From Escherichia phage vB_EcoM_DE16, in sequence record OP595145.1: a stretch of DNA of 64,000 nucleotides. One strand, given 5' to 3'. Shown piece by piece: positions 7,534-49,641 of the stretch (position 1 is the stretch's first letter; the number at the start of each line of letters is the position of its first letter). A program made the position numbers and the translations under genes. The notes beneath the pieces are model-generated. The model saw only the letters and a list, made by a program, of their open reading frames with translations, was not told where the DNA came from and searched no databases.

Positions 7534-7560
7534 CGGCGGGGGTTAAGCCCCCGTTATCAA
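7534..7560 (+). terminator. hairpin terminator after sheath gene
   Basis: GC stem CGGGGG/CCCCCG with short loop then TTATCAAAAT; T-tract is weak. Confidence 0.4.
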
Positions 7561-7577
7561 AATAAAGAGGATCTATA

Positions 7578-8057: not shown

Positions 8058-8063
8058 TAAATA

Positions 8064-8085
8064 AAGGGCAGAAATGCCCTTTTTA
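8064..8085 (+). terminator. rho-independent terminator after tube gene
   Basis: AAGGGCA-GAAA-TGCCCTT followed by TTTT. Confidence 0.65.
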
Positions 8086-8102
8086 TCATTAGAGAGGAAA
8101 AT

Positions 8103-8851: not shown

Positions 8852-8871
8852 TCCAACACGAGGAACATACT

Positions 8872-29859: not shown

Positions 29860-31884
29860 ATGAATTTAACAAGACCTAATAGTGCGATAGCCGATCTGGT
29901 AGAAGCTACTTATCGAAAACGTCGCAGCTTTGAGGCAGGTTTTACATTACGTAATTCCCGTGAAGTTTTGCTGTTAGCAGCAGAAGGGAATTATTACCAA
30001 TGGAAAGGAACTTTTCCTAAAGTTGTTCCAGCAAACTCTACGCCAGCCACCACAGGTGGTATTTCTTCCCTTGCATGGCAAAGTGTTGGGACCGCTGATG
30101 ATATAGCAATTATCAATGCCAAGTTTACAGCAATGCAGCAACAGATTGATGATCTGTCGGAAACAATACCTGAAGCTGGTAAATCGGCTTATCAGATCGC
30201 ACTTGATAATGGTTTTGTTGGAACAGAAGCACAATGGCTTGCTTCTTTGAAAGGGGATACTGGTGCTCAACTTAATATTAAAGGATCATTAGCAAGCACT
30301 AGTGAACTACCATCCACAGGTAACGTTGCAGGGGATGGTTATATCGTAGGTGATGTAATCTACGCTTGGGATGGTTCTGTTTGGAAACTTATTTCTTCTC
30401 TTGGGCCAGAAGGTAAATCAGCTTACGAGGTATGGTTGGCAGATGGTAATACAGGATCTGTTTATGATTTTCTTACCTCTATAAAAGGTGATAAAGGTGA
30501 TGTTGGTCCTACAGGGCCACAGGGAGCACCTGGTGTTAACGCCAACGGTTTTGATTATCGTGGGGATTTGCCTTCTACAAGTAACTTACCACAACCTAAC
30601 TCTGAAAACGTAAGCCAAGCTTATTCTATCAATGGTAATCTTTATGTCTCTAATGGGACAGCTTGGGTCAACATGGGTAATATTGTTGGTCCTCAAGGTC
30701 CACAAGGTGAGGCAGGTAAAGACGGTCTTGATGGAACAGATGGAGATGAAGGGAAATCTGCATATCAAAGTTGGCTGGATGCTGGTAATGAAGGGACAGA
30801 AGTAGATTTTATTGCCTCACTTAAAGGTCCAAAAGGAGACAAGGGTGATCAAGGAGAGCGAGGTCCACAAGGTGAACTAGGTCCACAAGGACCAGTGGGT
30901 GCAACAGGATCAGGTTTAGAGATTATCGGGGTTCTGAACAGTGAAGCTGAACTTCCTCCTACTGGAGAAGTAGGTGATGCATATAAAATTAATAATGATT
31001 TGTATGTTTGGATTCAAGATGCTACGGAATGGATGAATGTTGGCAGTCTTGGAGGAACATCAATTACAGCTAAAGGTCATGTTCCGAACAGTGAAGCTCT
31101 CCCTGTTTATAATAACTATGGTGATGCCTATTTAACTGAAGACACTAGTAATCTTTACATCTATACCTACGATCAAGACACCAATTCCGCATCTTTTGTT
31201 GACATGGGAAGTATTAAAGGCGACAAAGGTGAAAAAGGGGATAAAGGAGATAAGGGTGATCCTGGAACAAACGGAACCAACGGTACTGATGGGACCAACG
31301 GTAAGGACGGCGCACAGTGGTTTGTAGCAACAACTAATCCAGTTGCAGGAGACGGTGTTATCAATGATTACGCTTTCAACACTACCACTGGAGCAGTGTT
31401 TAAGAAAACAGATTCTTCTACATGGACACTTATAGGAACTCTTCCTAGTATACCAGAAGCACCTCAAGACGGCTTGACGTATGGTCGTTCTGATGGGAAC
31501 TGGATCGAAATATCAGGATCAGATCCTACAGAAGCTATAACACCAACTAAAGTTACAGCAGGTTTCATGGAACTTGAAACAACTACTGCCAACTCTGGAG
31601 CATCTTGGACTCCTTCTGGAACTTCCAATATGTATGTTGTTACAGTAACTGACGCTCTGACAGTTGGAGCATGGCCTGGTGTCACTGGCTCTACAAAGCC
31701 TAAAGCGTTTTCAGCAATGATTTATTTGATTCAAGATACAACGGGACACACGGTTACACTAGATGCGTCTTATGGAGCACTGAATGATACAGAAATAGCA
31801 ACTACTGCTAACGCAGTAACAATTTTGCAATTAACGTATCCTGGTGTGGGTGATATCGTGGACATGGTTGTTGTAACACGATAA
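29860..31884 (+). CDS. tail fiber protein with collagen-like Gly-X-Y repeats and phage tail-fibre repeats
   Basis: 674 aa; G-X-Y runs (KGDKGDQGERGPQGELGPQGPVGATG; KGDKGEKGDKGDKGDPGTNGTNGTDGTNGKDG) and three GKSAY...WL..GN.G...DF..S.KG repeats. Confidence 0.65.
   Translation: MNLTRPNSAIADLVEATYRKRRSFEAGFTLRNSREVLLLAAEGNYYQWKGTFPKVVPANSTPATTGGISSLAWQSVGTADDIAIINAKFTAMQQQIDDLSETIPEAGKSAYQIALDNGFVGTEAQWLASLKGDTGAQLNIKGSLASTSELPSTGNVAGDGYIVGDVIYAWDGSVWKLISSLGPEGKSAYEVWLADGNTGSVYDFLTSIKGDKGDVGPTGPQGAPGVNANGFDYRGDLPSTSNLPQPNSENVSQAYSINGNLYVSNGTAWVNMGNIVGPQGPQGEAGKDGLDGTDGDEGKSAYQSWLDAGNEGTEVDFIASLKGPKGDKGDQGERGPQGELGPQGPVGATGSGLEIIGVLNSEAELPPTGEVGDAYKINNDLYVWIQDATEWMNVGSLGGTSITAKGHVPNSEALPVYNNYGDAYLTEDTSNLYIYTYDQDTNSASFVDMGSIKGDKGEKGDKGDKGDPGTNGTNGTDGTNGKDGAQWFVATTNPVAGDGVINDYAFNTTTGAVFKKTDSSTWTLIGTLPSIPEAPQDGLTYGRSDGNWIEISGSDPTEAITPTKVTAGFMELETTTANSGASWTPSGTSNMYVVTVTDALTVGAWPGVTGSTKPKAFSAMIYLIQDTTGHTVTLDASYGALNDTEIATTANAVTILQLTYPGVGDIVDMVVVTR
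30470..31320 (+). repeat. coding collagen-like (G-X-Y)n segments inside the tail fiber gene
   Basis: Four separate Gly-X-Y blocks in the translated sequence; boundaries approximate. Confidence 0.6.
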
Positions 31885-31925: not shown

Positions 31926-34598
31926 ATGTTTCCAATTCCAATATTTACTATTATGACCAGCACTGGTGTCGTTCCTCTGCCAGCAGGTATTGTTAAAAAA
32001 GTAATTACTTTAGATTACCCAGATAACGCTGGTAATTCTAACAGCAGTTTAGCAATTTTGCTTAATGATGGTAGATTGTTTACTCAAGGCGCAAACCTCT
32101 TTGGTGAGATTGCAGATGGAACTCGTAGTGCACGATTCAATAATTTCCACTTAGCTTCTACTGTAGTAGCAGATGTGTTTACCGCAGATCGTTGTTTTGT
32201 TATTAAAACTAACAGTGGGGGATGGCAATATTCAGGATTGACAGCAGGGTTGGTAGGATCTATAGCAGCAGGTGGTACGGATGCATGTGTAACTACTTGG
32301 ACCAGCTTTCCATCTGTAATAACAGGGACTATTTCTTTAGCCAATCTTAAAGAGGTTAAAGGAGGGTATAACAATACTCTCTGGTTAATGAATAGTGGTG
32401 TTCTTTATGGATCGGGTCAAAACACAGTAGGCAGTTTAGGTGCAAGCACTACTAACGAAGTTTCTACTCCTCGTCAGATAACAAGCGCAGCAGTTGCTTT
32501 TGATGCAGGTTACAACCAATGCTCTTATGTCAACAATGTGGGAACCTTGCGTGTTTGTGGAGCTAGTAAAGGTTTAGCAGGTAATAATAACACAACAACC
32601 GCTTTTGTCAATGCCAAGATATCCACTACTGAAACAGTGTATGTCAAAGATTACATCAATACAGTTTCCCAGACAATAGTTGTAGGAGATACCTCCGGTG
32701 GTACGGGTACGGTAAACTACTTATATGTTAGGTCTAATACAGAAACAACCTACACTAAACTGGACACCTTTGCAGCAGGTTTCTCAACATGGAAGTTTCC
32801 ACCAAGCCGCCACTCTTTTTTCGTTGGGATCAATAATTCCTTGTGGGCTATTGGTAAGAACTACACTGCAAACTTAGGTTTGGGGTATGATTCTGCGAGC
32901 GGAGATCCGCTTCAAGTGGGAAAACCAGTTAAACCTGAAGGAGTGGGTTCCTGGGATATAAACAAGCTCACAAGCGTTCATACGCTGAATATGGATGTTA
33001 CTAACCAATTAGGTTATCAAGGAACCTTTTTCGTTTATAACGGGGATATGTATTATTCCGGTATTTGGAAAGATGGGAAAGCCTCGTATCTGTTCAATAG
33101 TGGTTTAAACTATAATAAATTCACACCAATAGCAAGCTCTGTGATTACAGGGGATGTGCTGGCAACTAGCTTAACTACAGATTCTTTAGGAATTTGTATT
33201 GTAGGTGGAACTAAACAGTTGACGCATTCTGTTAGCCCAGAAGGAGGTAAACTTTTCAATATTAAATACACTTCTTCTGCCCCTGCAAACATGACAATAT
33301 CATCTACTGGTTTAATGACTTTCCATGCAGAAGGTGGTTTTGATGCAGGTATGACAGCCTTAAACGCTGAAGGAACAACTTTATCAGATACCTCTGGAGG
33401 ATATGCTTCAACATTAAGTGTTTACACCCCTAGCTTATCTGCGATGGATGTAGGAACAACACAAACAATGGTAGCAGAAATAACGCCAACAGGGGCAGCA
33501 AGCTTACCTGGTATGGTTGTTGAGTATACAACTACAGATCCTAATGTTGCTACAGTAGATCCTACAACTGGTGTAATAACTGGTGTTGGTGATGGTGGTT
33601 GTAGAATTGGTTGCACAGCTACGTATCAAGGTGTTGTTACCGCTTCTGATAGTTCTTATTTAACGGTGAACGCTGTTGCGGGAAAGGAGTTAGCTCCATC
33701 TCCGAGTAGTAGTTTAACGGTTCTAAACGGATATTTCAACCACTCGGCAGATGGGGCAATCACGTTCCCAATTTTATCGGGTACTGTCACACCAGCTAAC
33801 TTTGTAGTTAAGGTGGATGACGTTGTAATACCTTCAAATAAAGTAATATTTAGAAATAAAGCTTTCTCTACAGTGGATAGTTATCCAGCAGGAGAATATA
33901 GACTGGCTATTGAATTTGCAAGTGCTTCAGTAGTGAATAGTGTTGATGTGTCTATGGAAGCAAATCCAGATCTTTTAGAATTATGGGGCGGCAACAGAAT
34001 TGGTTATTCTACAAGCCCAGCCTCACAATTCTTAAAAGGTTGTGCTAACTTAAGACGAATAACTTCTGATTGTTTTAGTAACACATCTTACACCGGAACA
34101 TCTATAAGTGGTATCTTCTCTGGCTGTACAAGTTTGACAGCTATCCCTGAAGGATTATTCAGTGATGCTTTATTTCCTTCAATGACAACAATGTCAAGCA
34201 CGTTTGAAGGTTGTACATCTTTAACATCTATTCCTTCAGATTTATTTAAGAATCTGTCAAAAGTTACAAGATATTCTTACACCTTTAAAGATTGCACCTC
34301 TCTTGCAGAAGTTCCAGCAGGAATGTTTGATAATATTCCAACGAAAGTGACCTCTTTAACAGCTACATTCCAAGGTTGTTTAGCACTTACAGATTTTAAT
34401 AAAATCTTTAATGACAATCCAGGGTTAACTGTTTGTGGTAAACGTGGATCATTATCTTCTTTCTTTAGTGGATGCACAAATCTTACAGGAACAGGAACAA
34501 CATTAACAAATACATTAGGCGGAGTAGCTAATAGTTACCTATTCAGGTATTGCACAAAACTTTCTGATTATAATAATATTCCTTCGGGTTATAAATAA
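31926..34598 (+). CDS. multidomain tail-associated protein: RCC1-like repeats + Big_2 Ig-like domain + BspA-type leucine-rich repeats
   Basis: 890 aa; RCC1-like stretches (NSLWAIGKNYTANLGLG, SGVLYGSGQNTVGSLG); Big_2-like TTTDPNVATVDPTTGVITGVGDGGCRIGCTATYQG; C-terminal repeats FSGCTSLTAIPEGLF / FEGCTSLTSIPSDLF / FKDCTSLAEVPAGMF. Confidence 0.55.
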   Translation: MFPIPIFTIMTSTGVVPLPAGIVKKVITLDYPDNAGNSNSSLAILLNDGRLFTQGANLFGEIADGTRSARFNNFHLASTVVADVFTADRCFVIKTNSGGWQYSGLTAGLVGSIAAGGTDACVTTWTSFPSVITGTISLANLKEVKGGYNNTLWLMNSGVLYGSGQNTVGSLGASTTNEVSTPRQITSAAVAFDAGYNQCSYVNNVGTLRVCGASKGLAGNNNTTTAFVNAKISTTETVYVKDYINTVSQTIVVGDTSGGTGTVNYLYVRSNTETTYTKLDTFAAGFSTWKFPPSRHSFFVGINNSLWAIGKNYTANLGLGYDSASGDPLQVGKPVKPEGVGSWDINKLTSVHTLNMDVTNQLGYQGTFFVYNGDMYYSGIWKDGKASYLFNSGLNYNKFTPIASSVITGDVLATSLTTDSLGICIVGGTKQLTHSVSPEGGKLFNIKYTSSAPANMTISSTGLMTFHAEGGFDAGMTALNAEGTTLSDTSGGYASTLSVYTPSLSAMDVGTTQTMVAEITPTGAASLPGMVVEYTTTDPNVATVDPTTGVITGVGDGGCRIGCTATYQGVVTASDSSYLTVNAVAGKELAPSPSSSLTVLNGYFNHSADGAITFPILSGTVTPANFVVKVDDVVIPSNKVIFRNKAFSTVDSYPAGEYRLAIEFASASVVNSVDVSMEANPDLLELWGGNRIGYSTSPASQFLKGCANLRRITSDCFSNTSYTGTSISGIFSGCTSLTAIPEGLFSDALFPSMTTMSSTFEGCTSLTSIPSDLFKNLSKVTRYSYTFKDCTSLAEVPAGMFDNIPTKVTSLTATFQGCLALTDFNKIFNDNPGLTVCGKRGSLSSFFSGCTNLTGTGTTLTNTLGGVANSYLFRYCTKLSDYNNIPSGYK

Positions 34599-34599
34599 G

Positions 34600-34628
34600 A
34601 AAAGGAGCCATTTGGCTCCTTTCTTTTA
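34600..34628. terminator. bidirectional terminator at convergence of plus and minus transcription units
   Basis: GGAGCC-ATTT-GGCTCC hairpin flanked by A-run on one side and T-run on the other, between the stops of the 31926 (+) and 34663 (-) genes. Confidence 0.6.
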
Positions 34629-34662
34629 TTCAGCATTCAACCTCACACACTTGAAACAAACC

Positions 34663-35595
34663 TTAGAAGCAATGCAGGAAGTTTCGACCATATTGCAGTC
34701 CAATAGGAGCAAATGGAATATCATCGTCGAAGTCCATTGGAGGTTCTTCTTGATTACTTGGAGTTGGTTCTGGTTGTGGTTCAGGCTTCTTAACTTCTTT
34801 CTTCTCTTCTTTCTTAGGTTGTTCTGCGGAACCACGAATGGCAGCAGCAACTTTATCAGACAGAGCCAGAACTTTACGAGCAGAGTCAATCAGATCTTCT
34901 ACAGATACAGTCTTAATGGTATGGTCTTTACAAGCATTGAGAATAGCGTGACCAACAGATGCCCCAAGATCATAATCATTAATATCAACGCCACGAGATT
35001 CAGCAATTTCCGATTTCAGCGTGACAGTTGCAGATTGAACAACCCCAGCGATATCGAAAGCATCACCTTTAACACCATTACGAATCAGTTCCAGTGCACC
35101 ATTTACTGCGTGACCAGTTTCCAGACCTACAGTATCACGTTTTTTATAGGACTGCTTAGGAGCAGCATCGTTGGAACCTTTATTGCCAGAAGATTTGTTA
35201 GACTTCTGAACACCATCGGTAGACAATACTGTAATACGAGATTTTTTAGTATTGTAGTAAGTTTTACCGCCTTTATTATCAACGCGATCAATATCAATAC
35301 TTACTTCTACACCTTTTTCAATAGTGATCCAATTATCACCTTCTTTGACTTGCAGGTTTTCATAACCTTCTTTCAGTTCAATGTCACCAAGAGAAATCCA
35401 AACACCTTTCTCATCTGGTTTAGCACCTTTCTCTTTCAGAACAAGAGAAGCTCGGTGAGTTGAAACAATCGTTTTTCCTTCCCAATGAAAAGTTTTAGGT
35501 TCAGCGAATTTATCCAGTTTAACGTAGTCTACGATACCAGTTGCATAAGTTACGGTTTTGCCTTTACGATCAGTTTCAGTATTAATTACGGACAT
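34663..35595 (-). CDS. single-stranded DNA-binding protein-like, carrying an E. coli SSB-type acidic tip motif
   Basis: 310 aa; RBS GAGGAG; acidic/proline-rich tail with PPMDFDDDIPF followed by 15 more residues; N-terminal beta-rich region. Confidence 0.45.
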   Translation of the reverse strand: MSVINTETDRKGKTVTYATGIVDYVKLDKFAEPKTFHWEGKTIVSTHRASLVLKEKGAKPDEKGVWISLGDIELKEGYENLQVKEGDNWITIEKGVEVSIDIDRVDNKGGKTYYNTKKSRITVLSTDGVQKSNKSSGNKGSNDAAPKQSYKKRDTVGLETGHAVNGALELIRNGVKGDAFDIAGVVQSATVTLKSEIAESRGVDINDYDLGASVGHAILNACKDHTIKTVSVEDLIDSARKVLALSDKVAAAIRGSAEQPKKEEKKEVKKPEPQPEPTPSNQEEPPMDFDDDIPFAPIGLQYGRNFLHCF

Positions 35596-35611
35596 TATTA
35601 TCTCCTCTACA

Positions 35612-37272: not shown

Positions 37273-39870
37273 TCAATGACAGGATGCCCAGGAATTACCC
37301 ACATCATATCCGGCAGTAAGCTGAACATTAAGATTGTAAAATTCTCCAGCCTTAGTAACAGCTAAGGCAGCAAGTTCACCTGCCCGACTATAGGCTGTAA
37401 ACCATCCACCTTTGGGAGATTCATGAATGTTAGCCCAAATTTGCCCTGTCTCTTTTTCCTTATTATGCTTCCATTCTTCGACTTTAGCAAGGCATTCTTT
37501 ATCAATTTTCTTTTGTTCTTCAGGATCGTCTACTTTCTTCCAACCTAATGATTCAGGTGAAAACCATTTGAATTCTACAAGGTTACGAGAAACTTCAAGC
37601 TGGGCTTCATCGTGGTATGCAATCATTTGTTGCACGAAGTCTTTATTCTTCCAATCATCTTTAAAGAAGTCAACACTTAGTCCTTCTTCTTCGATCATGT
37701 CGTCATAAATAACCATTGCACGTTTAGCACAGATAACCCCACCACTTTGGAACAGAGAGTTAAGAATCGCGTGAGCAGAACGAGTAGGAACCTTACGACC
37801 GTCAATACCCAAAACATATTGTTTACCAGTCTTAACCCAGAAATCGTTTAAACGTTCTTTAAGACGCGCCAATGGGAATGCAGCTTCCCAGAAAGCATCG
37901 AACACCAATTGACCTGTAAACTTATCGCTACCAATTGTTTTAGCAACCTTGTCGGCTTGTGCACCATAGGTAATACCATACTTAACAGATTTAGCAGGAC
38001 TACGTTCAAATTTACGTCCAATAGTTTCAGTGATACGTTTTGCCATCATTGTGTGAACATCATTAGGTTTCTCTAACAACAGGGCGTTACAATACTCGTG
38101 TGGCTCCGGCTCGTACCGCCAACAGTAGTGTGATTCAATTTTTGCTTCCAAAGAGTCGAAGTCGTAGCCGATCTGGAAGTATTTAGGAACCTCCACACCA
38201 AACAAGTTACGCATCTCCCATCCAAACAAAGATGTGACACGAGGAATATTAGCTACAGACCTATGCTTCATACGCGAGGTTGCAGCATCACATGTAGCGG
38301 CTGGGGTAGGAATACGCCCATCCGCCCTTACTGCGGCTAAGAAACCTTTATCGTATTCTTGATCTTCTTCATCTTCTTCCCAATCAGCACCGCCACCTAA
38401 AATAGAGTTCCTACGATGTTTATACGTTAAGTATTCTACAATCTGTGTAGCATAAGGGAATTTCTCACCCAAAGCTTGCAGGTTAGGACAGATTTCTTTT
38501 TCCTGACCTTTGGTAAAGCATGGGTTAGTCAATACTTTAAGACCGCGACCTTTACCTTTTGCTATACGCTCTTGAATCTTCCTTTCCAAAGTTTCCGGTG
38601 TGCACTCCAGATGATCACAACGATCCTGACAAAAATTAGAAGATAGAGTTTGCTCAACGTAAGCTCGAATACCTTTCTGAAGTTCTTCCTCGCTCTTTTT
38701 AATCTTGGTGCCAGATTTAAGAGTCAAGTCTTTATCTTTATATTCAGACGGTACCCAACCTAATCCTACAAGCCAGTTTTTAATATGGGTAGTATCGTTC
38801 AATGTTGCAGGGATGTTAGGATCACACAAAGGCTCATCTGCTGCAACTGGCAGTTTCCACTCTTTCCCCAACATCACTAACCACCAATCTCCATCCCTCT
38901 CTTCCAAATGACCATCATGTTTCTTAGCAAAATTGATCATATGGTTAGTTGGCTCTAAGTTCTTTTTAATTTGCAACTTAGGTGGAATAAAAGCCTTAAG
39001 ATAACCTTTTGTTGCTGGTTTAGGTGGCAAAATAGGCTCAACGAGTAAACGAAGACGCTCCATTTCTGCATCCAAAAAAGCAAGGTTCTCTTCTGCTTGC
39101 TTCATGTTAAAAGCAAACCCACGGTGTTCCTGGCGTGTAATAATGTCTGCTACACGTTGTTCAAGTTCAAATGGACCTTCCCATTTATCATAATCACCCC
39201 ATTCTTCCATAAGGTAATTATATACGCTCGTATTGGCTTTGTTGTCATAGATACAGTAATAAAGCATATCAGCAGCAAAAGTCTTAAATCGATCTTCTTC
39301 TGGAATCTCTTTACGGAAATCTATTTTTACATCACCCCCTGCCTTTCGAGAAAGTGCTGCCAAACTATGTCCTGATTTGCCTTCAATCTTTCGATCTGGG
39401 TTTAACACTTTACTCAAAATCAAGGAGTCAATAAGTTTTACCTTATTTTTGCCCCACGTATTATATTTAACACTGTAATCTAAGCCATAAAACAGTTTTG
39501 TAGCCAACCAGTCATAGTTGATACCGTTGTGAGCCACAGCCATTTCAACCAGATATTCAGGCTTATCTTTAAAATAACCTTCATGATTAATAAAGTCTGG
39601 GAAATCTTTTAGTTGAAAATGTGTGTAATCTTGCGCCACATACTCTTTAAGAACATATGTGTATTTACCATCTGACTCTTCATAAGGACGCCCATCAAAG
39701 ATGTATTTAGGGCCATCGTGGAAAGCTACTATTTCTCCTGTTTCATGGTTCTCTAAGACAATACAGTGCATTTGAAATGTGTCTTTGAGACGATAAGGAC
39801 TAGCTAAATAATCGATAGTGTCATTATTCAACAATCCGTTTGCTTCAATATCCCATGTAAACTTACTCAC
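37273..39870 (-). CDS. DNA polymerase, family A, with 3'-5' exonuclease domain
   Basis: 865 aa; exonuclease motif DIEANGL; motif B-like KSVKYGITYGAQ; motif C YHDE; GTG start after AAGGAGG. Confidence 0.85.
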   Translation of the reverse strand: MSKFTWDIEANGLLNNDTIDYLASPYRLKDTFQMHCIVLENHETGEIVAFHDGPKYIFDGRPYEESDGKYTYVLKEYVAQDYTHFQLKDFPDFINHEGYFKDKPEYLVEMAVAHNGINYDWLATKLFYGLDYSVKYNTWGKNKVKLIDSLILSKVLNPDRKIEGKSGHSLAALSRKAGGDVKIDFRKEIPEEDRFKTFAADMLYYCIYDNKANTSVYNYLMEEWGDYDKWEGPFELEQRVADIITRQEHRGFAFNMKQAEENLAFLDAEMERLRLLVEPILPPKPATKGYLKAFIPPKLQIKKNLEPTNHMINFAKKHDGHLEERDGDWWLVMLGKEWKLPVAADEPLCDPNIPATLNDTTHIKNWLVGLGWVPSEYKDKDLTLKSGTKIKKSEEELQKGIRAYVEQTLSSNFCQDRCDHLECTPETLERKIQERIAKGKGRGLKVLTNPCFTKGQEKEICPNLQALGEKFPYATQIVEYLTYKHRRNSILGGGADWEEDEEDQEYDKGFLAAVRADGRIPTPAATCDAATSRMKHRSVANIPRVTSLFGWEMRNLFGVEVPKYFQIGYDFDSLEAKIESHYCWRYEPEPHEYCNALLLEKPNDVHTMMAKRITETIGRKFERSPAKSVKYGITYGAQADKVAKTIGSDKFTGQLVFDAFWEAAFPLARLKERLNDFWVKTGKQYVLGIDGRKVPTRSAHAILNSLFQSGGVICAKRAMVIYDDMIEEEGLSVDFFKDDWKNKDFVQQMIAYHDEAQLEVSRNLVEFKWFSPESLGWKKVDDPEEQKKIDKECLAKVEEWKHNKEKETGQIWANIHESPKGGWFTAYSRAGELAALAVTKAGEFYNLNVQLTAGYDVGNSWASCH

Positions 39871-40664
39871 TATTCCTCCTTTCTAATGTTCTCCAGAACC
39901 CACTGAAGTTCTTTTAAACTTAAACTTCTTACTCCCGCAGTTTTACTAGCTTCAGCTTTAAGTAACGGGTAAGCCTCAATGATACGCGTTTTAAGATCAG
40001 AAGTCAAGGCTTTTAAAAAATAGGTAGATGCTTCAGATAAAGAATCTTCTTCTGATAACACTTTACCTGCACTTGCTCCCGCTCTCCTAACGGCTATATC
40101 GTAGTCTTTACTGTTACCTAATACGAATAGTCGATTCTCTCCTAAAACAACGGGAGAACGCTTCTCGTTGCGTTTAATCCATATCTGGAATACACAAGGA
40201 ACATCCCAAGGTTCTCCATGAAGAATAAAAGATCCTTTTGGACATTCTTCTTCGTAAAGAAGATGCATATGGGGATTTAGTTTGTGTGCAAAAAAGATTT
40301 TTTGAAATGTGCGAGGCAAGATAAAACAAATACCACCTTCGTTATCCAGCATTTCAGCACAATGGTTAAAGAATTTAATGGCAAGACTAGCATTTTTTCC
40401 AAATGGAGGATTACCGACAAAAGCAGTTACACTACCAACAGACTCAACAGATTGAGCTAAAAAATCTGCCTCAATACAATCTTCAAACTTAGGGTCAATA
40501 TCAAAAGAAGTTATGTTTTTAAAACAAGAAGAGAAAGCTCCTTCTCCCGCAGATGGTTCTACGTAGTTAGCTTCCTCTCCAAAAATTTCTTTGATCTTAT
40601 CACATAAGAACCCCGCATAAGCGGGGTTAGTGTAATATTGATCAAGTGTGTTCAACTTGCTCAA
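39870..40664 (-). CDS. DNA N6-adenine methyltransferase (putative)
   Basis: 264 aa; AdoMet motif I EPSAGEGAF and catalytic motif IV NPPF; stop overlaps polymerase start (TAGTG). Confidence 0.65.
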   Translation of the reverse strand: MSKLNTLDQYYTNPAYAGFLCDKIKEIFGEEANYVEPSAGEGAFSSCFKNITSFDIDPKFEDCIEADFLAQSVESVGSVTAFVGNPPFGKNASLAIKFFNHCAEMLDNEGGICFILPRTFQKIFFAHKLNPHMHLLYEEECPKGSFILHGEPWDVPCVFQIWIKRNEKRSPVVLGENRLFVLGNSKDYDIAVRRAGASAGKVLSEEDSLSEASTYFLKALTSDLKTRIIEAYPLLKAEASKTAGVRSLSLKELQWVLENIRKEE

Positions 40665-41197: not shown

Positions 41198-42976
41198 TTA
41201 ATAGTTGCTATCCGTAGGCAAATTAGCAGGATTGTTGAAATACTGCTCTTTGTCATGCAGAGTTGCAGTTCTAATGTCATAGTAAAACTGCCCTGCTGGA
41301 CCAGTCTCTGAGAACTCACGGTTTTTTAGGATAAAGCAATGAGTCGTATTTCGTTCTACAGGGTCTTCAGCGGCTTTATCTCGTTCCAAAGCCAAGGTAA
41401 TACCAGCACCTTTAGCCAAGAAACTACTACCCATTGCATCGTCCTCTGTTAAGTGTTCATTGCCACCATTAGCCGATTTCTTAACGTGTGAGATGACAAT
41501 AATAGTTATAGCATACTCTTTCATGATGCGCTTCAACCATGTTGCTAACTCTTCCTGGGCTTGAACATCCATACCAGAAAGCAAATCAGAATAAGGGTCG
41601 ATAACAAGAATTGTTACTCCAAAATAGATGATCATCTCCAAAACTTTTTCTTTGATAGACTCCACATCTGCTCCACGATCATCACACACATAAAAACGTG
41701 GTGATCCATCTTCTCTTTCGTAAAAATCTAGGATTTTTTCTTTATTCTCTTCCAAGATTTGAAATTTCTCTTCCGGTGTTTTCCTATGTAGAGGAATGTG
41801 CAGGAAAGAGGACAACAGGTTACGAGAATATTTCTTATAGGTTGCTTCCAATGACAGAATACCGAGGGTATGTTCTGGGTGTGCAACAATAATATGTTTG
41901 GTGATCTCGTTCACCATCAAAGTTTTACCGATACTGGTCTTTGCCAGGATGACTGTAATCTCTTCCTCTACTAAACCACCACCCAGCATATTTGCAGCAA
42001 CACGCATAAAAGGAGGCAAGGTAATCATCTTGGATTCCAAACATTCTAATGCAGCTTCATACAAGACATTAGAAGCATAAACACCTGCTGGGGTGTATAG
42101 ACGAGCACTCCAAAAAGCTTTTACGAAATCCTTTGCACGACCTTCTTCCAGATACTGATTGGCATCCTTAAGATCCATCTGCATACGGTAGACTTTGTTA
42201 CGAGGCAGCACCTTAACAATATTTTCAAATGCCTCATTACCCGCTTTGTCATTATCCATGCAAACAATAATCTTCTTAAATTTTTCAAAGAAAGGATATT
42301 GTGCCTGAACTTGTTTATACATACTGGTTTCACCAGTTGTGCCACTTACTACTGCTGGAAGCTCATATTTGTTGTCCAAGTTTTCAGACAGCATTTGATA
42401 AGCTGCCAGAGCATCGTGTTCACCACCTGTAATTACCACAGTATGAGAACGATCTGCAAAACGAATTTGTCCAAAAAGATCTACATCTTTACCTACTTGA
42501 CCAATAGGTTTACTGAAATCTTTAGGATGAATACGACGCTTAAAACCAACCAATTCTTTACCGATGGTAGTCGGATATAAACAACTTTCTACTACCATCT
42601 GATCCCCTTCCTGACGGTATTCATAACGAACACCATAGAAAGATGAAACTTTTTCTTTAATGCCTCGATAACCACGTGGGTTGGTTGATGTTTCTTGAAC
42701 AATTTTACGATGAATCTGTTTATTAAATTCCGAACCCACAATCTCCTCCTCTTCTTCTAAAACTTCACCATTTTCTCGTAACCATTCTACGCTAGGAATA
42801 GTGTATTCACACGCAAAGCACTTAGCACCTTTATGCTCTCCATTAGAATCTAATCCATAAACCATCAGGTTATTACGAGAGCGATCCTTGCCATTTTTCA
42901 TGCAGCGCGGACAACCTGTATGCCCTTCCTTGCTAAGATCAACATCAAATCCATATTTAGTTATAATGTGCGACAC
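41198..42976 (-). CDS. DNA primase-helicase (zinc finger + TOPRIM + DnaB/gp4-like helicase)
   Basis: 592 aa; N-terminal CPRCMKNG...CFACEY zinc ribbon; TOPRIM acidic motifs (GGEHDA; CMDNDKAG); Walker A ILAKTSIGKT; Walker B LVIDPYSD. Confidence 0.8.
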   Translation of the reverse strand: MSHIITKYGFDVDLSKEGHTGCPRCMKNGKDRSRNNLMVYGLDSNGEHKGAKCFACEYTIPSVEWLRENGEVLEEEEEIVGSEFNKQIHRKIVQETSTNPRGYRGIKEKVSSFYGVRYEYRQEGDQMVVESCLYPTTIGKELVGFKRRIHPKDFSKPIGQVGKDVDLFGQIRFADRSHTVVITGGEHDALAAYQMLSENLDNKYELPAVVSGTTGETSMYKQVQAQYPFFEKFKKIIVCMDNDKAGNEAFENIVKVLPRNKVYRMQMDLKDANQYLEEGRAKDFVKAFWSARLYTPAGVYASNVLYEAALECLESKMITLPPFMRVAANMLGGGLVEEEITVILAKTSIGKTLMVNEITKHIIVAHPEHTLGILSLEATYKKYSRNLLSSFLHIPLHRKTPEEKFQILEENKEKILDFYEREDGSPRFYVCDDRGADVESIKEKVLEMIIYFGVTILVIDPYSDLLSGMDVQAQEELATWLKRIMKEYAITIIVISHVKKSANGGNEHLTEDDAMGSSFLAKGAGITLALERDKAAEDPVERNTTHCFILKNREFSETGPAGQFYYDIRTATLHDKEQYFNNPANLPTDSNY

Positions 42977-42988: not shown

Positions 42989-43267
42989 TTAAAATGGTTC
43001 GTTAGTCTCCATCATATATTCTGCTTCTAGTTCTTCCATGTGCTTTCTAAATTGGAAAGCAATTTCTGCTACAGTTACATTTAAATCTTTTTCAAAAACT
43101 TCTGTAGAGCCTTCGTAAAAACGAATACCGTCAATTAAAAGCCCTCCGTGGTAATCCCAATCACTTTCACGAGAAAGCGGGTTAGGCTCTTCATAATAGT
43201 AATCCACCTCCACGACTAAGGCTTTCCCGTTACGAGTGGTGTATTCAAAATCAAAAGTGTTAATCAT
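42989..43267 (-). CDS. hypothetical protein
   Basis: 92 aa ORF. Confidence 0.4.
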   Translation of the reverse strand: MINTFDFEYTTRNGKALVVEVDYYYEEPNPLSRESDWDYHGGLLIDGIRFYEGSTEVFEKDLNVTVAEIAFQFRKHMEELEAEYMMETNEPF

Positions 43268-44211
43268 TATAGCTCCTCAAATAAAAGTCTACGACGCTCA
43301 TTCAACACATCAATGTGATAATGAGTCCTGACATACTTAGCTAATGCTAATCCTTTCTCCATGCAAACATCGGGAGCACTTAATAAGTATTCCGTAATAT
43401 CTTTCCACTCGGAAGGTGTTTCAGCAAAGAATAACAGATCTTTAAACTCTTGTGTATGATAATTCTCACGAGGAGAACAAATCAAAGGTAAACCCTTAGC
43501 ACCTGCCTCAAGAATTTTAAGATTGCTTTTTGCATTATTAAACACGTTATCAATCAATGGCGCAAGACTGACTTGATGACCATCGTAAGATTCCATGTAG
43601 TTGGCATATGGTCTTACACCTTCATAAACACAAGTTGGTGCTACATTTTCTCTGATTACAGACCATTCACGACTACTTAAAACTTCAGAATCCCTACGAA
43701 AACCACATATTGTAAGATCTTTACCAAAATCGGGCAAGATAGCCAAATCTTGTTTATGTGTTTCACTTCCAGCCCAGACTAATGGAGTTTTGGAGTAGCG
43801 ATCACGGGTCAACACAAATTGACCTTCATCGTAAGGAAGTCCATTAGGGATTATGTGCACATTATCATTGTATTGTGAAAGTTCAACTTGCAAGGCAGGT
43901 GTCGTAGTTGTAACAAGGTCACTGTGCTCTAAAAACCATTTTAAATGTTCACGAATACCTGATTCAAAAATACCTTCTAACATGTGTCCTTTTGGAATAA
44001 CTAAAGAGTCATCCAAATCCATAACCATTTTAAAGCCTAGGTTTTTAAGGGCTAAAAAGCCCTCTTTACCTTTTGTTGGCACTCCGTTAAAAACGAAAAC
44101 GTTGTGTTTAGGTTGTGAAGAGAACTGCCTTGAGTAAGGCAGCACTACCCTATGGAAATCGCAGACACTATAATTGATTCCGTTACGATTGTCAAGAATT
44201 ATTTGTCCCAT
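43267..44211 (-). CDS. glycosyltransferase-like protein (GT-B fold type), paralogue 1
   Basis: 314 aa; paralogous to the 44219 gene; C-terminal NAKSNLKILEAGAKGLPLICS resembles the GT-B donor-binding region. Confidence 0.4.
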   Translation of the reverse strand: MGQIILDNRNGINYSVCDFHRVVLPYSRQFSSQPKHNVFVFNGVPTKGKEGFLALKNLGFKMVMDLDDSLVIPKGHMLEGIFESGIREHLKWFLEHSDLVTTTTPALQVELSQYNDNVHIIPNGLPYDEGQFVLTRDRYSKTPLVWAGSETHKQDLAILPDFGKDLTICGFRRDSEVLSSREWSVIRENVAPTCVYEGVRPYANYMESYDGHQVSLAPLIDNVFNNAKSNLKILEAGAKGLPLICSPRENYHTQEFKDLLFFAETPSEWKDITEYLLSAPDVCMEKGLALAKYVRTHYHIDVLNERRRLLFEEL

Positions 44212-44218
44212 ACTTCAC

Positions 44219-45166
44219 CTACAAACTTTCAATAACCTGGCGTCGCAATTCGTTTGCATCTGCCAGATTATAATGTGTTCGAACATGTTCAGCCAAGAAC
44301 AAGCCACGATCTTCCCGATAGTTTGGATTGCGAAGAAGCTTAACAATTTCGTAATGCCATTCTGCTTTATTCTCTGCGTAAGCAACAGCACGAGCATCTA
44401 CAGGGTTAAAATAAGGTAACACCTTAGAACAAACAATCGGAATACCTTTTGCCCCAGCTTCCAGGATTTTGAGATTACTTTTGCAATTATTAAAATCATT
44501 ATCTACCAAAGGAGCTATAGCAATAGCATGACTTTCGTAAACACTCATGTAATTATCTAAATCTTTTACAGCAGCTTTATATTTAGCGTTTGGTAAATTT
44601 CTGCGAATCTTAATCCACTCTTGTCCCGTGATGCTCTGTGATGCTTCATATCCCGCAATAGTAAGAAGTTCATCATCGAAAGTATTAGAGACTAGTCGTA
44701 AGTCGGGTTCGTGACTAGCACCGCCAGCCCATACAACAGGGGTACCGGATGAACGATCATTTGACAAAGTGAATTGTCCACTATCAAAAGGAAGTGCATT
44801 TCGGATCACAACAACATTCCTATTTAAGTGACGGATCTTATATGCCAAGTATTCCGTAGTCACAATAACCACATCAGCAAGCTTAACCATAGCCACAATA
44901 GCATGAGTGTTTGACTCGTATAAACTTGCCAAATAATGCTCTGGATTAAGTTGGTAAAAATCATCTAAGTCTACAACAATCTTAACACCTTGACGTTTCA
45001 AAGATAAAACGTATTCTGCACCTTTAGAGTGGATACGGTTAAACACAACAACATCTTTCTTAGGTTGAATATTACTGTTGTTAAATGGTATAACAATACG
45101 ATGATAGTCACAACCGCTGTGAGGTTTTGCATCAATTTTTAGTTTAGACCATTTTTTATTTGACAT
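44219..45166 (-). CDS. glycosyltransferase-like protein (GT-B fold type), paralogue 2
   Basis: 315 aa; shares HRxVxP N-terminal and CKSNLKILEAGAKGIPIVCS C-terminal motifs with the 43267 gene. Confidence 0.4.
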   Translation of the reverse strand: MSNKKWSKLKIDAKPHSGCDYHRIVIPFNNSNIQPKKDVVVFNRIHSKGAEYVLSLKRQGVKIVVDLDDFYQLNPEHYLASLYESNTHAIVAMVKLADVVIVTTEYLAYKIRHLNRNVVVIRNALPFDSGQFTLSNDRSSGTPVVWAGGASHEPDLRLVSNTFDDELLTIAGYEASQSITGQEWIKIRRNLPNAKYKAAVKDLDNYMSVYESHAIAIAPLVDNDFNNCKSNLKILEAGAKGIPIVCSKVLPYFNPVDARAVAYAENKAEWHYEIVKLLRNPNYREDRGLFLAEHVRTHYNLADANELRRQVIESL

Positions 45167-45839
45167 GTGCTAGTGCCTCCTCATAGGAAATTCGGATTTT
45201 CCCATTTTTAATATCCTCTAAAGATGCTTTATATTCTTCCCAGTTAATCCCAATAGCAGCTTCTTTCTCTTCTTTTGTCAGGTTAGCAAAAGGCATAGGA
45301 TTGTTTCCAAAAACATCGTCTGGGTGGATATAAGCCATGATACGAAGTGGACAAGGTGTTGCCTGAATACCATGATTCAAACCAGCAGCTTGCAAACGGT
45401 GTCCCCATTCAGCATCTTCAAAACCATAACCGTGAGTGTAAGGACGGAAATAACCCATCTTCTCAACAACGGCACGAGAATACATTGCAAATTGACACAT
45501 TGCAAGTTCCCAGAGAATAACTTCTCCTTTGCTTCCAACAACTTTATCTTTGAAATACTCCGGCATACCAAAGAAATCCCATCCTCCAGAAACAGCCTGA
45601 TCTACAAAGTATGTTTCCCATCCTTCCATGACTGGGTAGCAATCATCGTCAAAAATAAACCAATAATCATAACCTTCTTCATAAAACTGGTGCATAAGTT
45701 CATTCCTGGCATAAGCTACACCTTTACGATCTGGATCGTTGAATACTCGAAAATCTGCACGTGGATCTGTTACAAGGTAGTCTTTAAGTGGACGGACACC
45801 TACAGTGATAACACCCACTCCGATTTTAATATTTTCCAT
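45156..45839 (-). CDS. glycosyltransferase-like protein (GT-A fold, DxD type)
   Basis: 227 aa; N-terminal beta-strand IGVGVITVG and FIFDDDC DxD-like motif. Confidence 0.4.
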   Translation of the reverse strand: MENIKIGVGVITVGVRPLKDYLVTDPRADFRVFNDPDRKGVAYARNELMHQFYEEGYDYWFIFDDDCYPVMEGWETYFVDQAVSGGWDFFGMPEYFKDKVVGSKGEVILWELAMCQFAMYSRAVVEKMGYFRPYTHGYGFEDAEWGHRLQAAGLNHGIQATPCPLRIMAYIHPDDVFGNNPMPFANLTKEEKEAAIGINWEEYKASLEDIKNGKIRISYEEALAHVK

Positions 45840-45847
45840 TATCTCTC

Positions 45848-46411
45848 CTAAATAGTTTTACTGTGATCGTGACAGTGTAATAAATGATGTATAGACCGTT
45901 GAGGATTTGTTTGACCTAATCTGTAAATGTGGAACAGATACATTCCCCGCATCAATCCTAACCTTTTTCCTTTTTCGTGTAAAGTGCGAGAGAAAATTAA
46001 GTCAAATTGAATAGATTTTTCTTCGAAAGGAATTTCATTCCATAGTGATTTCCTAAAAAGCAAAAAGAAACCTGCCAGAGGTGTTCCGAAAGGAACTTCT
46101 TCAACACTCACTTTATGATATTCTCTTGCAATCTTAGCATATTCTATATGGTTTAGAATATCTGGATCATCGTTAATTTGGTTAGAGAAAAGCTGATAAC
46201 CACTGCCTAACCTGTTACAAGTTGCACCTATTACATCAAAAGGCGGGTTTGACATAACAAGCTCTTCAAGCATAGATGGTTGATCAGGTAGGAGGAACAT
46301 TGTATCGGTATCTCTTAAACACACCCAACTATCATCTGGAAGAACGGCAATGGCTTCATTGATAGCCTTGCCGATATTTCCTGTCAGATAGGGAGTAATA
46401 TAATAAATCAT
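45848..46411 (-). CDS. hypothetical protein, possible small GT-A-like transferase
   Basis: 187 aa; RDTDTMF DxD-like motif; weak. Confidence 0.3.
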   Translation of the reverse strand: MIYYITPYLTGNIGKAINEAIAVLPDDSWVCLRDTDTMFLLPDQPSMLEELVMSNPPFDVIGATCNRLGSGYQLFSNQINDDPDILNHIEYAKIAREYHKVSVEEVPFGTPLAGFFLLFRKSLWNEIPFEEKSIQFDLIFSRTLHEKGKRLGLMRGMYLFHIYRLGQTNPQRSIHHLLHCHDHSKTI

Positions 46412-47112: not shown

Positions 47113-47634
47113 TTAACTCCCCTTTGGTAGATAGAAACCATGCACTTTATCTCGATAAACAAGACGCATATCACGTTCCCAGTGTGTCCTTATATTCCGT
47201 TTCTTGAAGTATAGAGCACCTTTAGTAACATCTAAAACAGACCGCAATTCAGGAAAATGTTTCTCTAAATAAAGTAAACGCTCCGCTATTGCTTTTGCTT
47301 CCTGCCATTTATCTTTTTCTGTTACGTTAAAAGTTTTCGCATATGAGAATTGCCCTTTCTGGAACAAAACTCCTCTGACTGTGTTAGGGAAGTAGGTATC
47401 ATTTCTTCTGTTGATTACCACATTCCCAACGGCATTCATTCCTTTTTTACCCAGACCGCGACCTTCTGCGTAAATTGCACAAGCTAATAGAATTTTATCA
47501 TTATATTGCTTTGTACATTTGTGAACTACTTTAGCGGTTTTTACGTTTGCAGCTTCGGCTTTCGCCACAACAGGTGTAAATGTAAAAGCAGTTAAGGATA
47601 GTAACGCAACTGTTACAAAGTTTTTTATCAGCAA
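47113..47634 (-). CDS. secreted cell wall hydrolase, SleB / Hydrolase_2 family (possible endolysin)
   Basis: 173 aa; N-terminal signal peptide (LLSLTAFTFTPVVAKAEA); motifs YAEGRG, NVVINRR, FQKGQFS; TTG start after GGAGG. Confidence 0.6.
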   Translation of the reverse strand: MLIKNFVTVALLSLTAFTFTPVVAKAEAANVKTAKVVHKCTKQYNDKILLACAIYAEGRGLGKKGMNAVGNVVINRRNDTYFPNTVRGVLFQKGQFSYAKTFNVTEKDKWQEAKAIAERLLYLEKHFPELRSVLDVTKGALYFKKRNIRTHWERDMRLVYRDKVHGFYLPKGS

Positions 47635-47733: not shown

Positions 47734-48336
47734 TTATGGACATTCATACCATTCTTTTTTACCACCGAAGGCCATCACCACATCACAAATATCCAGACCA
47801 GCTTTACCTACACCATATGCTTTCAGCTTCCATTCTCCATCTTCACGAACCAAGGAAGCCACGTGGCAGATTGTGTTGCCAGCTACTTCAGGAGCCAGGA
47901 AGTCAAAATCCAGAATTTCCACATTGCGCTCGGAGTCGAAGATTTTAAGCATACCTTCAGAAGCATGACCAAAACGTTTCAGACCTGTATCATCATCAAT
48001 GGTCAGAACAAAGGCAATCTCTTGTGCATCAGGAGAGATTTTAGCCAGAGTAATATCAATCTGCTCCATGCTGCCAGTTCCATCACGAACATCATCACCA
48101 GCGAAGGTAGAACGTTCAGGATCAAACTTGTTAGCATAGCAAACCAGATGACGTGCAGACAGCATTTCAGGATTGCCAGCGGCATTGTGACGACAAACCA
48201 GTGCACTTACATCCAGGTCCAGTTTAGAATCAGATTTCCAAGAGAATTCCAGGCGCAGTTCTTTCAGAGCCGGAGCAACTTTCTTCAGGGAAATTTTTTC
48301 GCTAGAGCCTTTTTTCAGGGAAATTTTATCAGTCAT
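47734..48336 (-). CDS. terD: TerD-domain protein
   Basis: 200 aa; tandem KISLKK strands at the N-terminus, LDLDVSAL motif, acidic GDDVRDGTG loop; closely follows the E. coli TerD N-terminal pattern. Confidence 0.7.
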   Translation of the reverse strand: MTDKISLKKGSSEKISLKKVAPALKELRLEFSWKSDSKLDLDVSALVCRHNAAGNPEMLSARHLVCYANKFDPERSTFAGDDVRDGTGSMEQIDITLAKISPDAQEIAFVLTIDDDTGLKRFGHASEGMLKIFDSERNVEILDFDFLAPEVAGNTICHVASLVREDGEWKLKAYGVGKAGLDICDVVMAFGGKKEWYECP

Positions 48337-48621: not shown

Positions 48622-48850
48622 TTCTTCCTCCTAATGTTATCTCCGGTTTGTATATACGAAGAATTATAGCATTTTCATTTTCTTTGTCAACCCATTCTTC
48701 ATAATCGGGCCATACATGAATCTCTACTCTATTCGCAATATCTTCCATCCGCACAGTCCCAATGAAATACTCTTTGAGACTGCGCATAATGAAAGCTTCT
48801 CTCTCGCGCCAATAATTTTCTACGACTTGAGAGGCAAGCTCGTCGATCAT
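48602..48850 (-). CDS. hypothetical protein
   Basis: 82 aa ORF between the vWA and paralogue A genes. Confidence 0.35.
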   Translation of the reverse strand: MIDELASQVVENYWREREAFIMRSLKEYFIGTVRMEDIANRVEIHVWPDYEEWVDKENENAIILRIYKPEITLGGRSVKLRN

Positions 48851-49641
48851 TTTTTAGCACCTACTTTAACAACCCACTCTCCGAACTCTTCAGATAAGAG
48901 TTTGTCATAAAGCTCTGAATCTGTCAAGTCTAAATCTTTAATGCCAATAAAACCAACATTATCATAAGCATTTGCCAGTTCTTTCAGGAAGCCAAACTTC
49001 TCATTACCAACGCCAACCATGAACCAATAGATAGGCTTATTCTTATTTTCTTCAATAAGACGACGAACAGCACTAGGATCACCATTCTCACCATCTGTCT
49101 GGAAGAATACAACACCAGGGGTAACGTCAGCACCTGGTTCAGATACAGCTACAACCTTTTCACGCTCTACAGACACTGTTTCAGTTTTACCAAGCAGACG
49201 ATTAAAGAAGCCTTTCTTTGGAGCCTCCTCTTGTACCACTTGTTTAGTGGTAATATATTTGGTAACAGTGCCAAAATACTCATCGTAGATATCTGCCATT
49301 ACAGGGGCGTAATTTGTTCCACCTCCGATACGAACATTACGCATACATTTACCAACATAGTCATCGTAAACGTCTGCTGTTGCTGGAGTAAGCTCTTGAG
49401 AACTCGTATTGAAGGCCCACATGTCAATTTGTTCATTATCGTCGAACAGCATACCAAAAGGAAGCAGTTTACCTACAAAATCACTCACTACCCCACGAGC
49501 ATATAGACTATGCATACTACCAGAAATATCTAGAGCACATGCTACACGAAGAACAATCTTACCTTCATTCAGGTTCTTATTCTTTTTCAGAGAGAAAGCA
49601 AGGTTTTCTTGACGTTTTTTCAGGCTGATTTTCTCGGACAT
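48847..49641 (-). CDS. vWA-domain protein with TerD-like N-terminal strand (TerF-C-like / TerY-like)
   Basis: 264 aa; N-terminal KISLKK ... FSLKK; MIDAS motif DISGSM, downstream GGGTNYAPV. Confidence 0.6.
   Translation of the reverse strand: MSEKISLKKRQENLAFSLKKNKNLNEGKIVLRVACALDISGSMHSLYARGVVSDFVGKLLPFGMLFDDNEQIDMWAFNTSSQELTPATADVYDDYVGKCMRNVRIGGGTNYAPVMADIYDEYFGTVTKYITTKQVVQEEAPKKGFFNRLLGKTETVSVEREKVVAVSEPGADVTPGVVFFQTDGENGDPSAVRRLIEENKNKPIYWFMVGVGNEKFGFLKELANAYDNVGFIGIKDLDLTDSELYDKLLSEEFGEWVVKVGAKK

Follow-up and report, generated by a model that had tools for sequence, protein, structure and literature searches.

Freeman et al. reportedly found in 2023 that mycobacteriophages encode several soluble glycosyltransferases (GTs) per genome, sometimes together with sugar-modifying enzymes, and use them to decorate their own capsid proteins with glycans made in the host cytoplasm, which results in a glycan shield (Cell Host Microbe 31:1216). 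The surface of Bacillus spores is glycosylated by a toolkit that comprises the GT-A enzyme SpsA, a CgeB-type GT-B enzyme (Pfam Glyco_trans_1_2) and SpsI-L, the equivalents of RmlA-D, and the collagen-like protein BclA carries rhamnose there. In mycobacteriophages Che8 and Rita the glycans sit on capsid proteins, and phages of cluster F1 encode GTs of their own, according to the portion of PMC11256854 in which this work is cited. T-even phages, RB69 and DLP3 instead glycosylate their DNA through enzymes such as the T4 alpha-GT (family GT72), the T4 beta-GT (GT63) and the arabinosyltransferases for 5-hydroxycytosine (5hoC); these systems always include a ThyA-family deoxynucleoside monophosphate (dNMP) hydroxymethylase or hydroxylase and a dNMP kinase, and the DNA is restriction-resistant (PMC13326640). 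Here we analyze an array of four GT genes on the minus strand of Escherichia phage vB_EcoM_DE16 (positions 43267-46411 of a 64,000-nucleotide stretch from record OP595145.1, hereafter the window). The module lacks the defining features of T4-type, TAGT and GtrABC systems. It may work most like mycobacteriophage virion glycosylation, with a toolkit that resembles that of the Bacillus spore surface, and we tentatively propose, at somewhat less than even confidence, that a rhamnose-containing oligosaccharide is assembled in the cytoplasm on virion surface proteins.

The 3.7-kb region carrying the array is 98-99% identical to its counterpart in 64 Phapecoctavirus genomes (phAPEC8-like E. coli myoviruses of the subfamily Stephanstirmvirinae), and three more records match it at 60-80% identity. 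Window position 43000 corresponds to position 109351 of phAPEC8, and the window covers approximately 66-130 kb of the 147.7-kb phAPEC8 genome, in which the four genes already appear in RefSeq as 'glycosyltransferase' (gp071-gp074). The first gene, GT1 (45848..46411; the labels denote genes, not GT families), encodes a minimal GT-A enzyme of 187 aa with the DxD motif D34-T-D36. It is followed by GT2 (45156..45839; 227 aa), a second GT-A enzyme with an F-D64-D-D66 motif and a beta4GalT7-like YGxED motif, and then by GT3 (44219..45166; 315 aa), a GT-B (GT4-like) enzyme, and its paralogue GT4 (43267..44211; 314 aa).

All four proteins match GT families in PHROG with E-values of 1e-78 to 1e-148. 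GT1 and GT2 each possess a single Rossmann-like GT-A domain with a conserved DxD motif: D34 and D36 of GT1 are at least 90% conserved among 32 homologues, and in GT2 D64 is at least 90% conserved and D66 invariant among 30. GT3 and GT4 consist of two Rossmann-like domains in GT-B topology, and their 41% identity (E = 2e-77) marks them as paralogues; GT4, itself a row of the GT3 family alignment, retains every invariant residue of that family. An earlier note, made from the letters of the window alone, had read four GT-like genes at 43267-46411, with the 314- and 315-aa proteins as a GT-B-like pair and the 227- and 187-aa proteins as DxD-containing and GT-A-like, and PHROG families, folds and the Pfam matches of family members agree in bearing this out. 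No transmembrane (TM) segment is apparent in any of the four, with a maximum 19-residue Kyte-Doolittle hydropathy of at most 1.65. The module thus comprises two GT-A and two GT-B soluble enzymes with real GT folds, so that a chain of up to about four sugars is possible.

In profile classification beyond PHROG, a check that the earlier note had suggested, Pfam yields sub-threshold matches for GT2, GT3 and GT4 and none for GT1, and NCBIfam yields nothing meaningful for any of the four. For GT3 and GT4 the Pfam matches are to Glyco_trans_1_2 and Glyco_trans_1_4 only (PF13524, 24.2 and 20.4 bits against a cut-off of 25; PF13692, 22.8 bits against 27). GT2 belongs to phrog_2456 (E = 1.2e-78), and its own sub-threshold matches are to TAGT, Glyco_transf_7C and Glycos_transf_2. 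Within the GT2 family (n = 30), Glycos_transf_2 is found in 11 members (best E = 7e-16), Glyco_transf_7C in 7 and TAGT in 16, the last below threshold (best E = 3.5e-5). Against chains in the PDB, the single sequences of GT1 to GT3 returned nothing useful and the GT3-family profile only spurious repeats; the GT2-family profile matched beta4GalT7 marginally (E = 0.003). A remote kinship between GT1 and GT2 was rejected (hhalign probability 0.5%).

The GT3 family has a distinctive signature, C19xxH22R23, D66xD68D69, H77, N123, H152, D155 and K229SNLKxLE236, each position of which is 83-100% conserved among 54 homologues of less than 36% identity and which is largely retained in actinophage proteins. 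Neither GT3 nor GT4 has a canonical EX7E motif or an above-threshold Glycos_transf_1-type C-terminal domain. Reading the GT3 sequence, only the second Glu of EX7E is present (E236, invariant), and the first position is taken by the invariant K229-S-N-L-K. Because the Pfam matches stay below threshold, NCBIfam is silent and EX7E is half-kept, GT3 and GT4 are, as judged from sequence, a distinct and unclassified GT4-like family. The closest viral structural neighbors of the enzymes include CgeB-like GTs of giant viruses, and the T4 alpha- and beta-GTs lie outside the top 50. The likeness to the Bacillus spore toolkit holds at the level of fold and domain, all Pfam scores being below threshold, and is an analogy between toolkits. 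The GT3/GT4 duplication is found in Phapecoctavirus and Justusliebigvirus, where each record matches in two places, whereas Klebsiella relatives have one.

A likely source of an activated sugar lies elsewhere in the genome. phAPEC8 gp166-169, outside the window, are RmlB, RmlA, RmlC and RmlD (Pfam E = 1e-66 to 1e-80), the pathway to deoxythymidine diphosphate (dTDP)-rhamnose. Among 50,697 phage records, RmlC and the GT array are each present in 64 at 95% identity or more, and at 60-80% identity RmlC is present in 65 records and GT3 in 66; Klebsiella relatives hold both. This shared phyletic pattern indicates that the array and the dTDP-L-rhamnose pathway are co-inherited in Stephanstirmvirinae, and from this we infer a functional link in which rhamnose would be the donor.

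Could the acceptor be DNA? The array shares several features with the systems of T-even phages, RB69 and DLP3, namely GT-B folds, a lytic myovirus background, siting among nucleotide-metabolism and replication genes, GTs that are sometimes serial and a phage-encoded sugar-activating pathway (PMC13326640). Rhamnosylation of hydroxymethylated nucleotides has been suggested by Olsen et al. (PMC7552041), and glycosylation of modified bases as an anti-restriction measure was one of two functions considered in the earlier note. However, whereas the DNA-modifying systems have a ThyA-family enzyme and restriction-resistant DNA, no ThyA homologue was found in phAPEC8 or the window, and the DNA of such phages is cut by HincII and by restriction-modification in vivo. 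The earlier note had seen no hydroxymethylase in the window, and a tblastn search with E. coli ThyA confirms this; extending the search to the whole phAPEC8 genome, as the note had proposed, also found nothing at E <=0.3, although very divergent homologues could escape it. In 112 cassette loci (1.52 Mb) the same query found nothing at E <=0.01. The sole thymidylate-synthase-like protein of phAPEC8, gp156, is ThyX (Pfam Thy1), and we rejected it as a disguised pyrimidine hydroxylase, since the known synthases of 5-hydroxymethylcytosine, 5-hydroxymethyluracil and 5hoC are ThyA homologues. No TET/JBP dioxygenase or C5-methyltransferase is annotated in phAPEC8, for which no dedicated TET/JBP profile scan was made, and gp194 and gp177, both annotated as 'DNA methyltransferase', have no Pfam match. 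None of the four GTs is specifically close in sequence or structure to known DNA GTs; GT2 was tried as a TET-associated GT (TAGT, PF20691) and rejected, as it scores 19.5 bits against a cut-off of 27.5 and aligns over residues 32-68 only, the DxD region.

Published digests speak to the restriction resistance that the earlier note had proposed to examine, and they go against it. HincII cuts, and types by restriction fragment length polymorphism, the genomes of Phapecoctavirus ESCO5, ESCO13, ESCO25 and ESCO37 and of Justusliebigvirus ESCO8, ESCO9 and ESCO32, and only three Tevenvirinae genomes resisted the enzyme in that study (PMC10269720). Our array-bearing records include ESCO5, ESCO9, ESCO13, ESCO25, ESCO32 and ESCO37. 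Likewise, the phi92-like phages Bas60-62, whose array is 66-71% identical to that of the window, are 'exceptionally susceptible' to restriction-modification 'despite a putative dTDP glycosylation machinery' (Maffei et al., PMC8594841). With no ThyA-type enzyme found, genomes that are cut by HincII and sensitive to restriction, and a TAGT match that is weak and local, bulk DNA glycosylation is rejected on explicit evidence, DNA glycosylation in Stephanstirmvirinae is unlikely, and hypermodification of the kind seen in T-even phages, RB69, DLP3 and TET-associated systems is very improbable as the function of the array. There is a further variant, to which we assign a smaller probability still, in which GT3-type enzymes, a phage-specific clade that keeps its N-terminal CxxHR / DxDD / H / H..D site in phages of three bacterial phyla, would glycosylate a universal non-protein acceptor such as sparse or sequence-specific sites in phage DNA, with no hydroxymethyl or hydroxyl pyrimidine precursor. 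If true, such direct DNA glycosylation would be undescribed chemistry, invisible to HincII and to the restriction-modification systems tried so far.

The distribution of the array points in another direction. IMG/VR viral contigs contain at least 578 relatives of the GT3 family; among 185,579 bacterial genomes, one per species, the family occurs at 20 loci, mostly in prophages. Open reading frames (ORFs) were called in 79 IMG/VR loci, 75 of which had a GT3 homologue as anchor, and the neighbors were clustered. In 40 of the 75 the GT3 homologue has a GT2-like companion at gene position -1 or +2, and in 15 it has a GT1-like one. The GT-A plus GT-B core is a mobile cassette borne almost only by phages, among them lytic myoviruses, temperate siphoviruses and small aquatic phages, and the hosts of these phages belong to Proteobacteria, Bacteroidota and Actinobacteria. 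Sugar-tailoring genes are frequent in the cassettes: a NAD epimerase/dehydratase (Pfam) and, from record annotation, a UDP-glucose dehydrogenase and a methyltransferase. Acetyltransferase-like and FkbM-like neighbors also occur, by our own reading of the cluster sequences. By the same reading, a ParB-methylase cluster lies at +3 genes in several loci. For the recurrent neighbors in aquatic phage loci, PHROG identifies the large terminase subunit (TerL) and otherwise mostly nothing. Some array-bearing records are labeled as phages of Campylobacter, Acinetobacter or Pseudomonas, among them Campylobacter phage B15, Acinetobacter phage vB_AbaM_ABPW7 and Pseudomonas phage PsgM04F. Their arrays are 79-100% identical to that of E. 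coli Phapecoctavirus, or about 70% identical, the level seen in phi92-like phages, and these host labels may be unreliable.

Across these genomes the cassette is repeatedly found next to or within the head and packaging genes. Of the 35 viral loci with a TerL gene, 33 have it 0.7-5.4 kb downstream and on the same strand. Seemingly chromosomal homologues in Pseudomonas and Enterobacter are in fact in prophages, and in lambdoid and other prophages the cassette is co-directional and tightly packed. In Enterobacter huaxiensis the order is lysis genes, a GT1-like gene (44% identity), a NAD epimerase/dehydratase (Pfam), a GT2-like gene (38%), a GT3-like gene, HNH, the small terminase subunit (TerS), TerL and capsid. 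Pseudomonas prophages and many metagenomic contigs have holin/lysis, GT2-like (43%) and GT3-like genes, TerS/TerL, portal, MuF, scaffold, cement and the major capsid protein (MCP). The cassette sits within the head module in three cases. The first is Chitinophaga varians (TerL, GT-A, GT3-like, SPP1-type portal, MCP). In the second, Cellulophaga phage phi12:1, portal, minor capsid and methyltransferase genes come before a GT with a GT1-like C-terminal part, which is followed by protease and MCP. The third, Paraburkholderia J67, reads portal, a collagen-repeat protein (E = 8e-67), GT1-like, GT3-like and a tail-tube protein with Big_1, Invasin_D3 and PKD Ig-like domains. The locus of Streptomyces phage Zuko, from its record annotation, reads UDP-glucose dehydrogenase, GT, terminase, portal and MCP. 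The sole clearly non-phage context is found in Burkholderia dolosa and two Trinickia species, where a conserved chromosomal locus joins a GT3-family gene to those for an inverse autotransporter of the intimin/invasin type (IAT_beta, Big_1, Invasin_D3) and for an unknown protein of 555-571 aa. This Burkholderiaceae locus may be an adhesin-glycosylation system, and an adhesin beside the GT suggests a protein acceptor. On the opposite strand of the same three loci lies a 478-499-aa protein with a weak match to an FlgD Ig-like domain.

The same neighborhoods bear on the second function raised in the earlier note, the remodeling of host surface glycans. Here the GTs would act at the cytoplasmic face on intermediates of core lipopolysaccharide, enterobacterial common antigen or capsule, or on intermediates linked to undecaprenyl pyrophosphate, for instance by adding rhamnose, and the altered receptors would lead to superinfection exclusion or keep progeny from being trapped on debris. 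GtrABC seroconversion has this in common with the array, that phage glycosylation genes alter a glycan relevant to adsorption. However, GtrABC is expressed from the prophage and needs the GtrA flippase, the membrane-bound GtrB, which transfers glucose to undecaprenyl phosphate (Und-P), and the polytopic GtrC, whereas the four GTs have neither a TM segment nor a polytopic neighbor, and the cassette lies in late or lytic transcription units. Of 670 proteins encoded up to five genes away from GT3 homologues in either direction, none shows as many as four TM-like segments, which leaves no flippase, GT-C enzyme, polymerase or Und-P transferase. In temperate phages the cassette is part of the late operon between lysis and terminase genes rather than an independent lysogenic-conversion gene near the attachment site, and the family is nearly absent from bacterial glycan loci. 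Moreover, the three phyla have differing envelope glycans, yet the acceptor-side signature is kept. Host glycan remodeling remains a live rival, in particular with regard to the timing of expression discussed below, but its fit with the spread over unrelated hosts and the lack of a membrane partner is poorer, and we regard it as unlikely.

Because the cassette crosses three phyla with its acceptor-side residues kept, the acceptor is probably one that all these phages share, the candidates being phage DNA, virion proteins or a sugar already on one of these. The rml cluster and the position by head and packaging genes point to a third option that the earlier note had not named, virion-protein glycosylation. 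This reading is based on the head-module placement, the sugar-tailoring genes, the collagen-like and Ig-like neighbors, the adhesin context and the structural kinship with CgeB-like enzymes. Under it, the four soluble enzymes would act jointly in the cytoplasm, before virions assemble or while they do so, to make a short oligosaccharide, no longer than about four sugars and probably including L-rhamnose from the phage RmlABCD pathway. The acceptor would be intrinsic to the phage, most probably a surface-exposed virion protein of the capsid, decoration, tail or fiber. We infer from the genes the protein acceptor, the order of the enzymes, rhamnose as donor and a role as a glycan shield affecting immune recognition, stability or non-specific adsorption. 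As in mycobacteriophage virion glycosylation, the phage-encoded GTs are soluble. The array phages differ in that they infect Gram-negative hosts (the family is also found in Bacteroidota and some actinophages) and, in the phAPEC8-like group, encode their own dTDP-rhamnose supply, and their virion glycosylation is a prediction. The GT3 tblastn matches listed from the 50,697 phage records include Streptomyces and Arthrobacter phages and no Mycobacterium phage.

Within the window, two tail proteins are weak leads as acceptors. One is a tail fiber (29860-31884, plus strand) that contains Tail_spike_N and four short collagen-like G-X-Y runs, and the other an 890-aa tail protein (31926-34598, plus strand) with RCC1-like and Big_2 domains. 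As a BclA-like acceptor the fiber was tried and set aside, since its runs of 6-11 triplets are short, not Thr-rich and ordinary for phage fibers.

The earlier note had described the genes as co-directional and overlapping, directly downstream of primase-helicase. They are indeed co-directional, but only GT2 and GT3 overlap (11 nt), the GT1/GT2 and GT3/GT4 junctions being spacers of 7-8 nt, and a Shine-Dalgarno-like sequence precedes each array gene. In the direction of transcription the array is upstream, not downstream, of the primase-helicase gene (41198..42976, minus; DnaB_C and Toprim domains, phrog_239, E = 2e-164), from which it is separated by a 92-aa ORF of unknown function (42989..43267, minus; phrog_4240, E = 6e-33). 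The start of this ORF overlaps the GT4 stop by 1 nt (TAATG). A homologue is present in 5 of the 79 viral loci only and is kept beside the array in close relatives only, and its membership of the module is uncertain. The nearest strong promoter-like site, a possible promoter of the array-containing transcription unit, is at 48690-48663 (minus strand) and matches the sigma-70 consensus at 12 of 12 positions with an extended TG; a consensus match is all that identifies it. A terminator-like site was looked for on the minus strand between this site and primase-helicase, and none was seen.

Several points weigh against the virion-protein reading. The array lies in the replication-strand block, outside the structural block, and appears to be co-transcribed with primase-helicase from a host-type promoter. 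Because that promoter-like site is of sigma-70 consensus, the sequence suggests transcription by the host polymerase and early or middle rather than late timing, which suits host-glycan remodeling at least as well as virion glycosylation. In the limited collection of literature searched, including for mass spectrometry and glycan staining, neither glycosylated virions nor modified DNA is directly documented for Stephanstirmvirinae. The slot before the terminase also houses DNA methyltransferases, so synteny is not decisive and fails to separate DNA from virion modification cleanly. The conservation of acceptor-side residues in GT3 is equally compatible with action on a sugar or another universal acceptor, and GT3 could extend a sugar rather than initiate the chain, a point tempered by the phages and Burkholderiaceae loci in which a GT3-type enzyme stands alone. 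Collagen-like and Ig-like domains are common in phage fibers and their proximity may be coincidence, and the mycobacteriophage precedent is one of analogy.

A conserved acceptor-side signature across hosts would fit any universally conserved molecule, and the acceptor could accordingly be a different soluble target, such as a host or non-structural phage protein, RNA, a small molecule (a nucleotide-derived signal or metabolite) or a free oligosaccharide. The strand block that holds the array also carries, a short way upstream, genes for a TerD-domain protein (47734-48336, minus; E = 3e-28) and a vWA-TerF-like protein (48847-49641, minus; E = 8e-38). Anantharaman, Iyer and Aravind reportedly proposed in 2012 that TerD and vWA-TerF are linked to a nucleoside-like metabolite. 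Nearby, phAPEC8 gp057 carries a further 'tellurite resistance' annotation. However, four transferases and a four-enzyme rhamnose pathway would be a large outlay for inactivating a small molecule, the head and packaging association and the adhesin context would be left unexplained, and we know of no precedent for such a system. We consider a soluble target of this kind doubtful and give it little probability.

Other features of the window and of related records were noted in passing. A SleB-type cell-wall hydrolase (47113-47634, minus; Pfam Hydrolase_2, E = 2e-17) with a hydrophobic N-terminal segment, annotated as endolysin in phAPEC8, lies among the replication-strand genes, a long way from the Rz-like spanin beside the terminase, outside the window. 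A 264-aa ORF (39870-40664, minus) with a TTG start and a VGNPPFG motif is annotated as an N6-adenine DNA methyltransferase in phAPEC8 and has no Pfam match at E <=1e-3; its first base is common to the end of the DNA polymerase ORF. That polymerase ORF encodes 865 aa in the window (37273-39870) and in phAPEC8, versus 1110 aa in an IMG/VR contig that is 98% identical at GT3 (L017, positions 6669-10001), and by eye the additional stretch resembles an intein or the insertion of a homing endonuclease. phAPEC8 gp117 (window 516-995, plus), between portal and head genes, is a 'DNA methyltransferase' in RefSeq, an annotation that is probably wrong because Pfam identifies a prohead serine protease of the XkdF type (Peptidase_S78_2, E = 1e-11). 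A 717-aa protein (17844-19997, plus) combines Calx-beta with the N-terminal and TIM-barrel domains of a 'non-contractile tail sheath' (E = 1e-78), an odd finding in a phage whose tail is contractile. The switch from the plus-strand structural genes to the minus-strand replication genes, at about 34600-35600, coincides with a change of sign in GC skew. The convergent ORFs 34612-35463 (plus) and 34663-35595 (minus) overlap almost wholly, so that at most one of them is likely real.

That these genes are annotated as GTs was already known, and the rml pathway is mentioned in two papers. What is new is the rejection of bulk DNA glycosylation on explicit evidence, the recognition that the GT-A plus GT-B core forms a phage-borne cassette that is widespread and marked by a distinctive GT-B signature, and a testable proposal of self-made virion glycosylation among phages that infect Gram-negative bacteria. 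This resolves a published puzzle, in which a 'dTDP glycosylation machinery' was suspected of DNA modification despite high sensitivity to restriction. The GT-B family, with at least 578 viral contigs, is large and uncharacterized, and establishing its function and that of its GT-A partner in one cultivable phage would annotate hundreds of genomes. Phapecoctavirus and phi92-like phages are among the most often isolated E. coli phages and have been repeatedly proposed for therapy. If the proposal is true, virion glycosylation would be seen for the first time in phages of Gram-negative hosts, and, like the mycobacteriophage glycan shield, it would have consequences for how antibodies recognize the phage and for its clearance, stability and adsorption.

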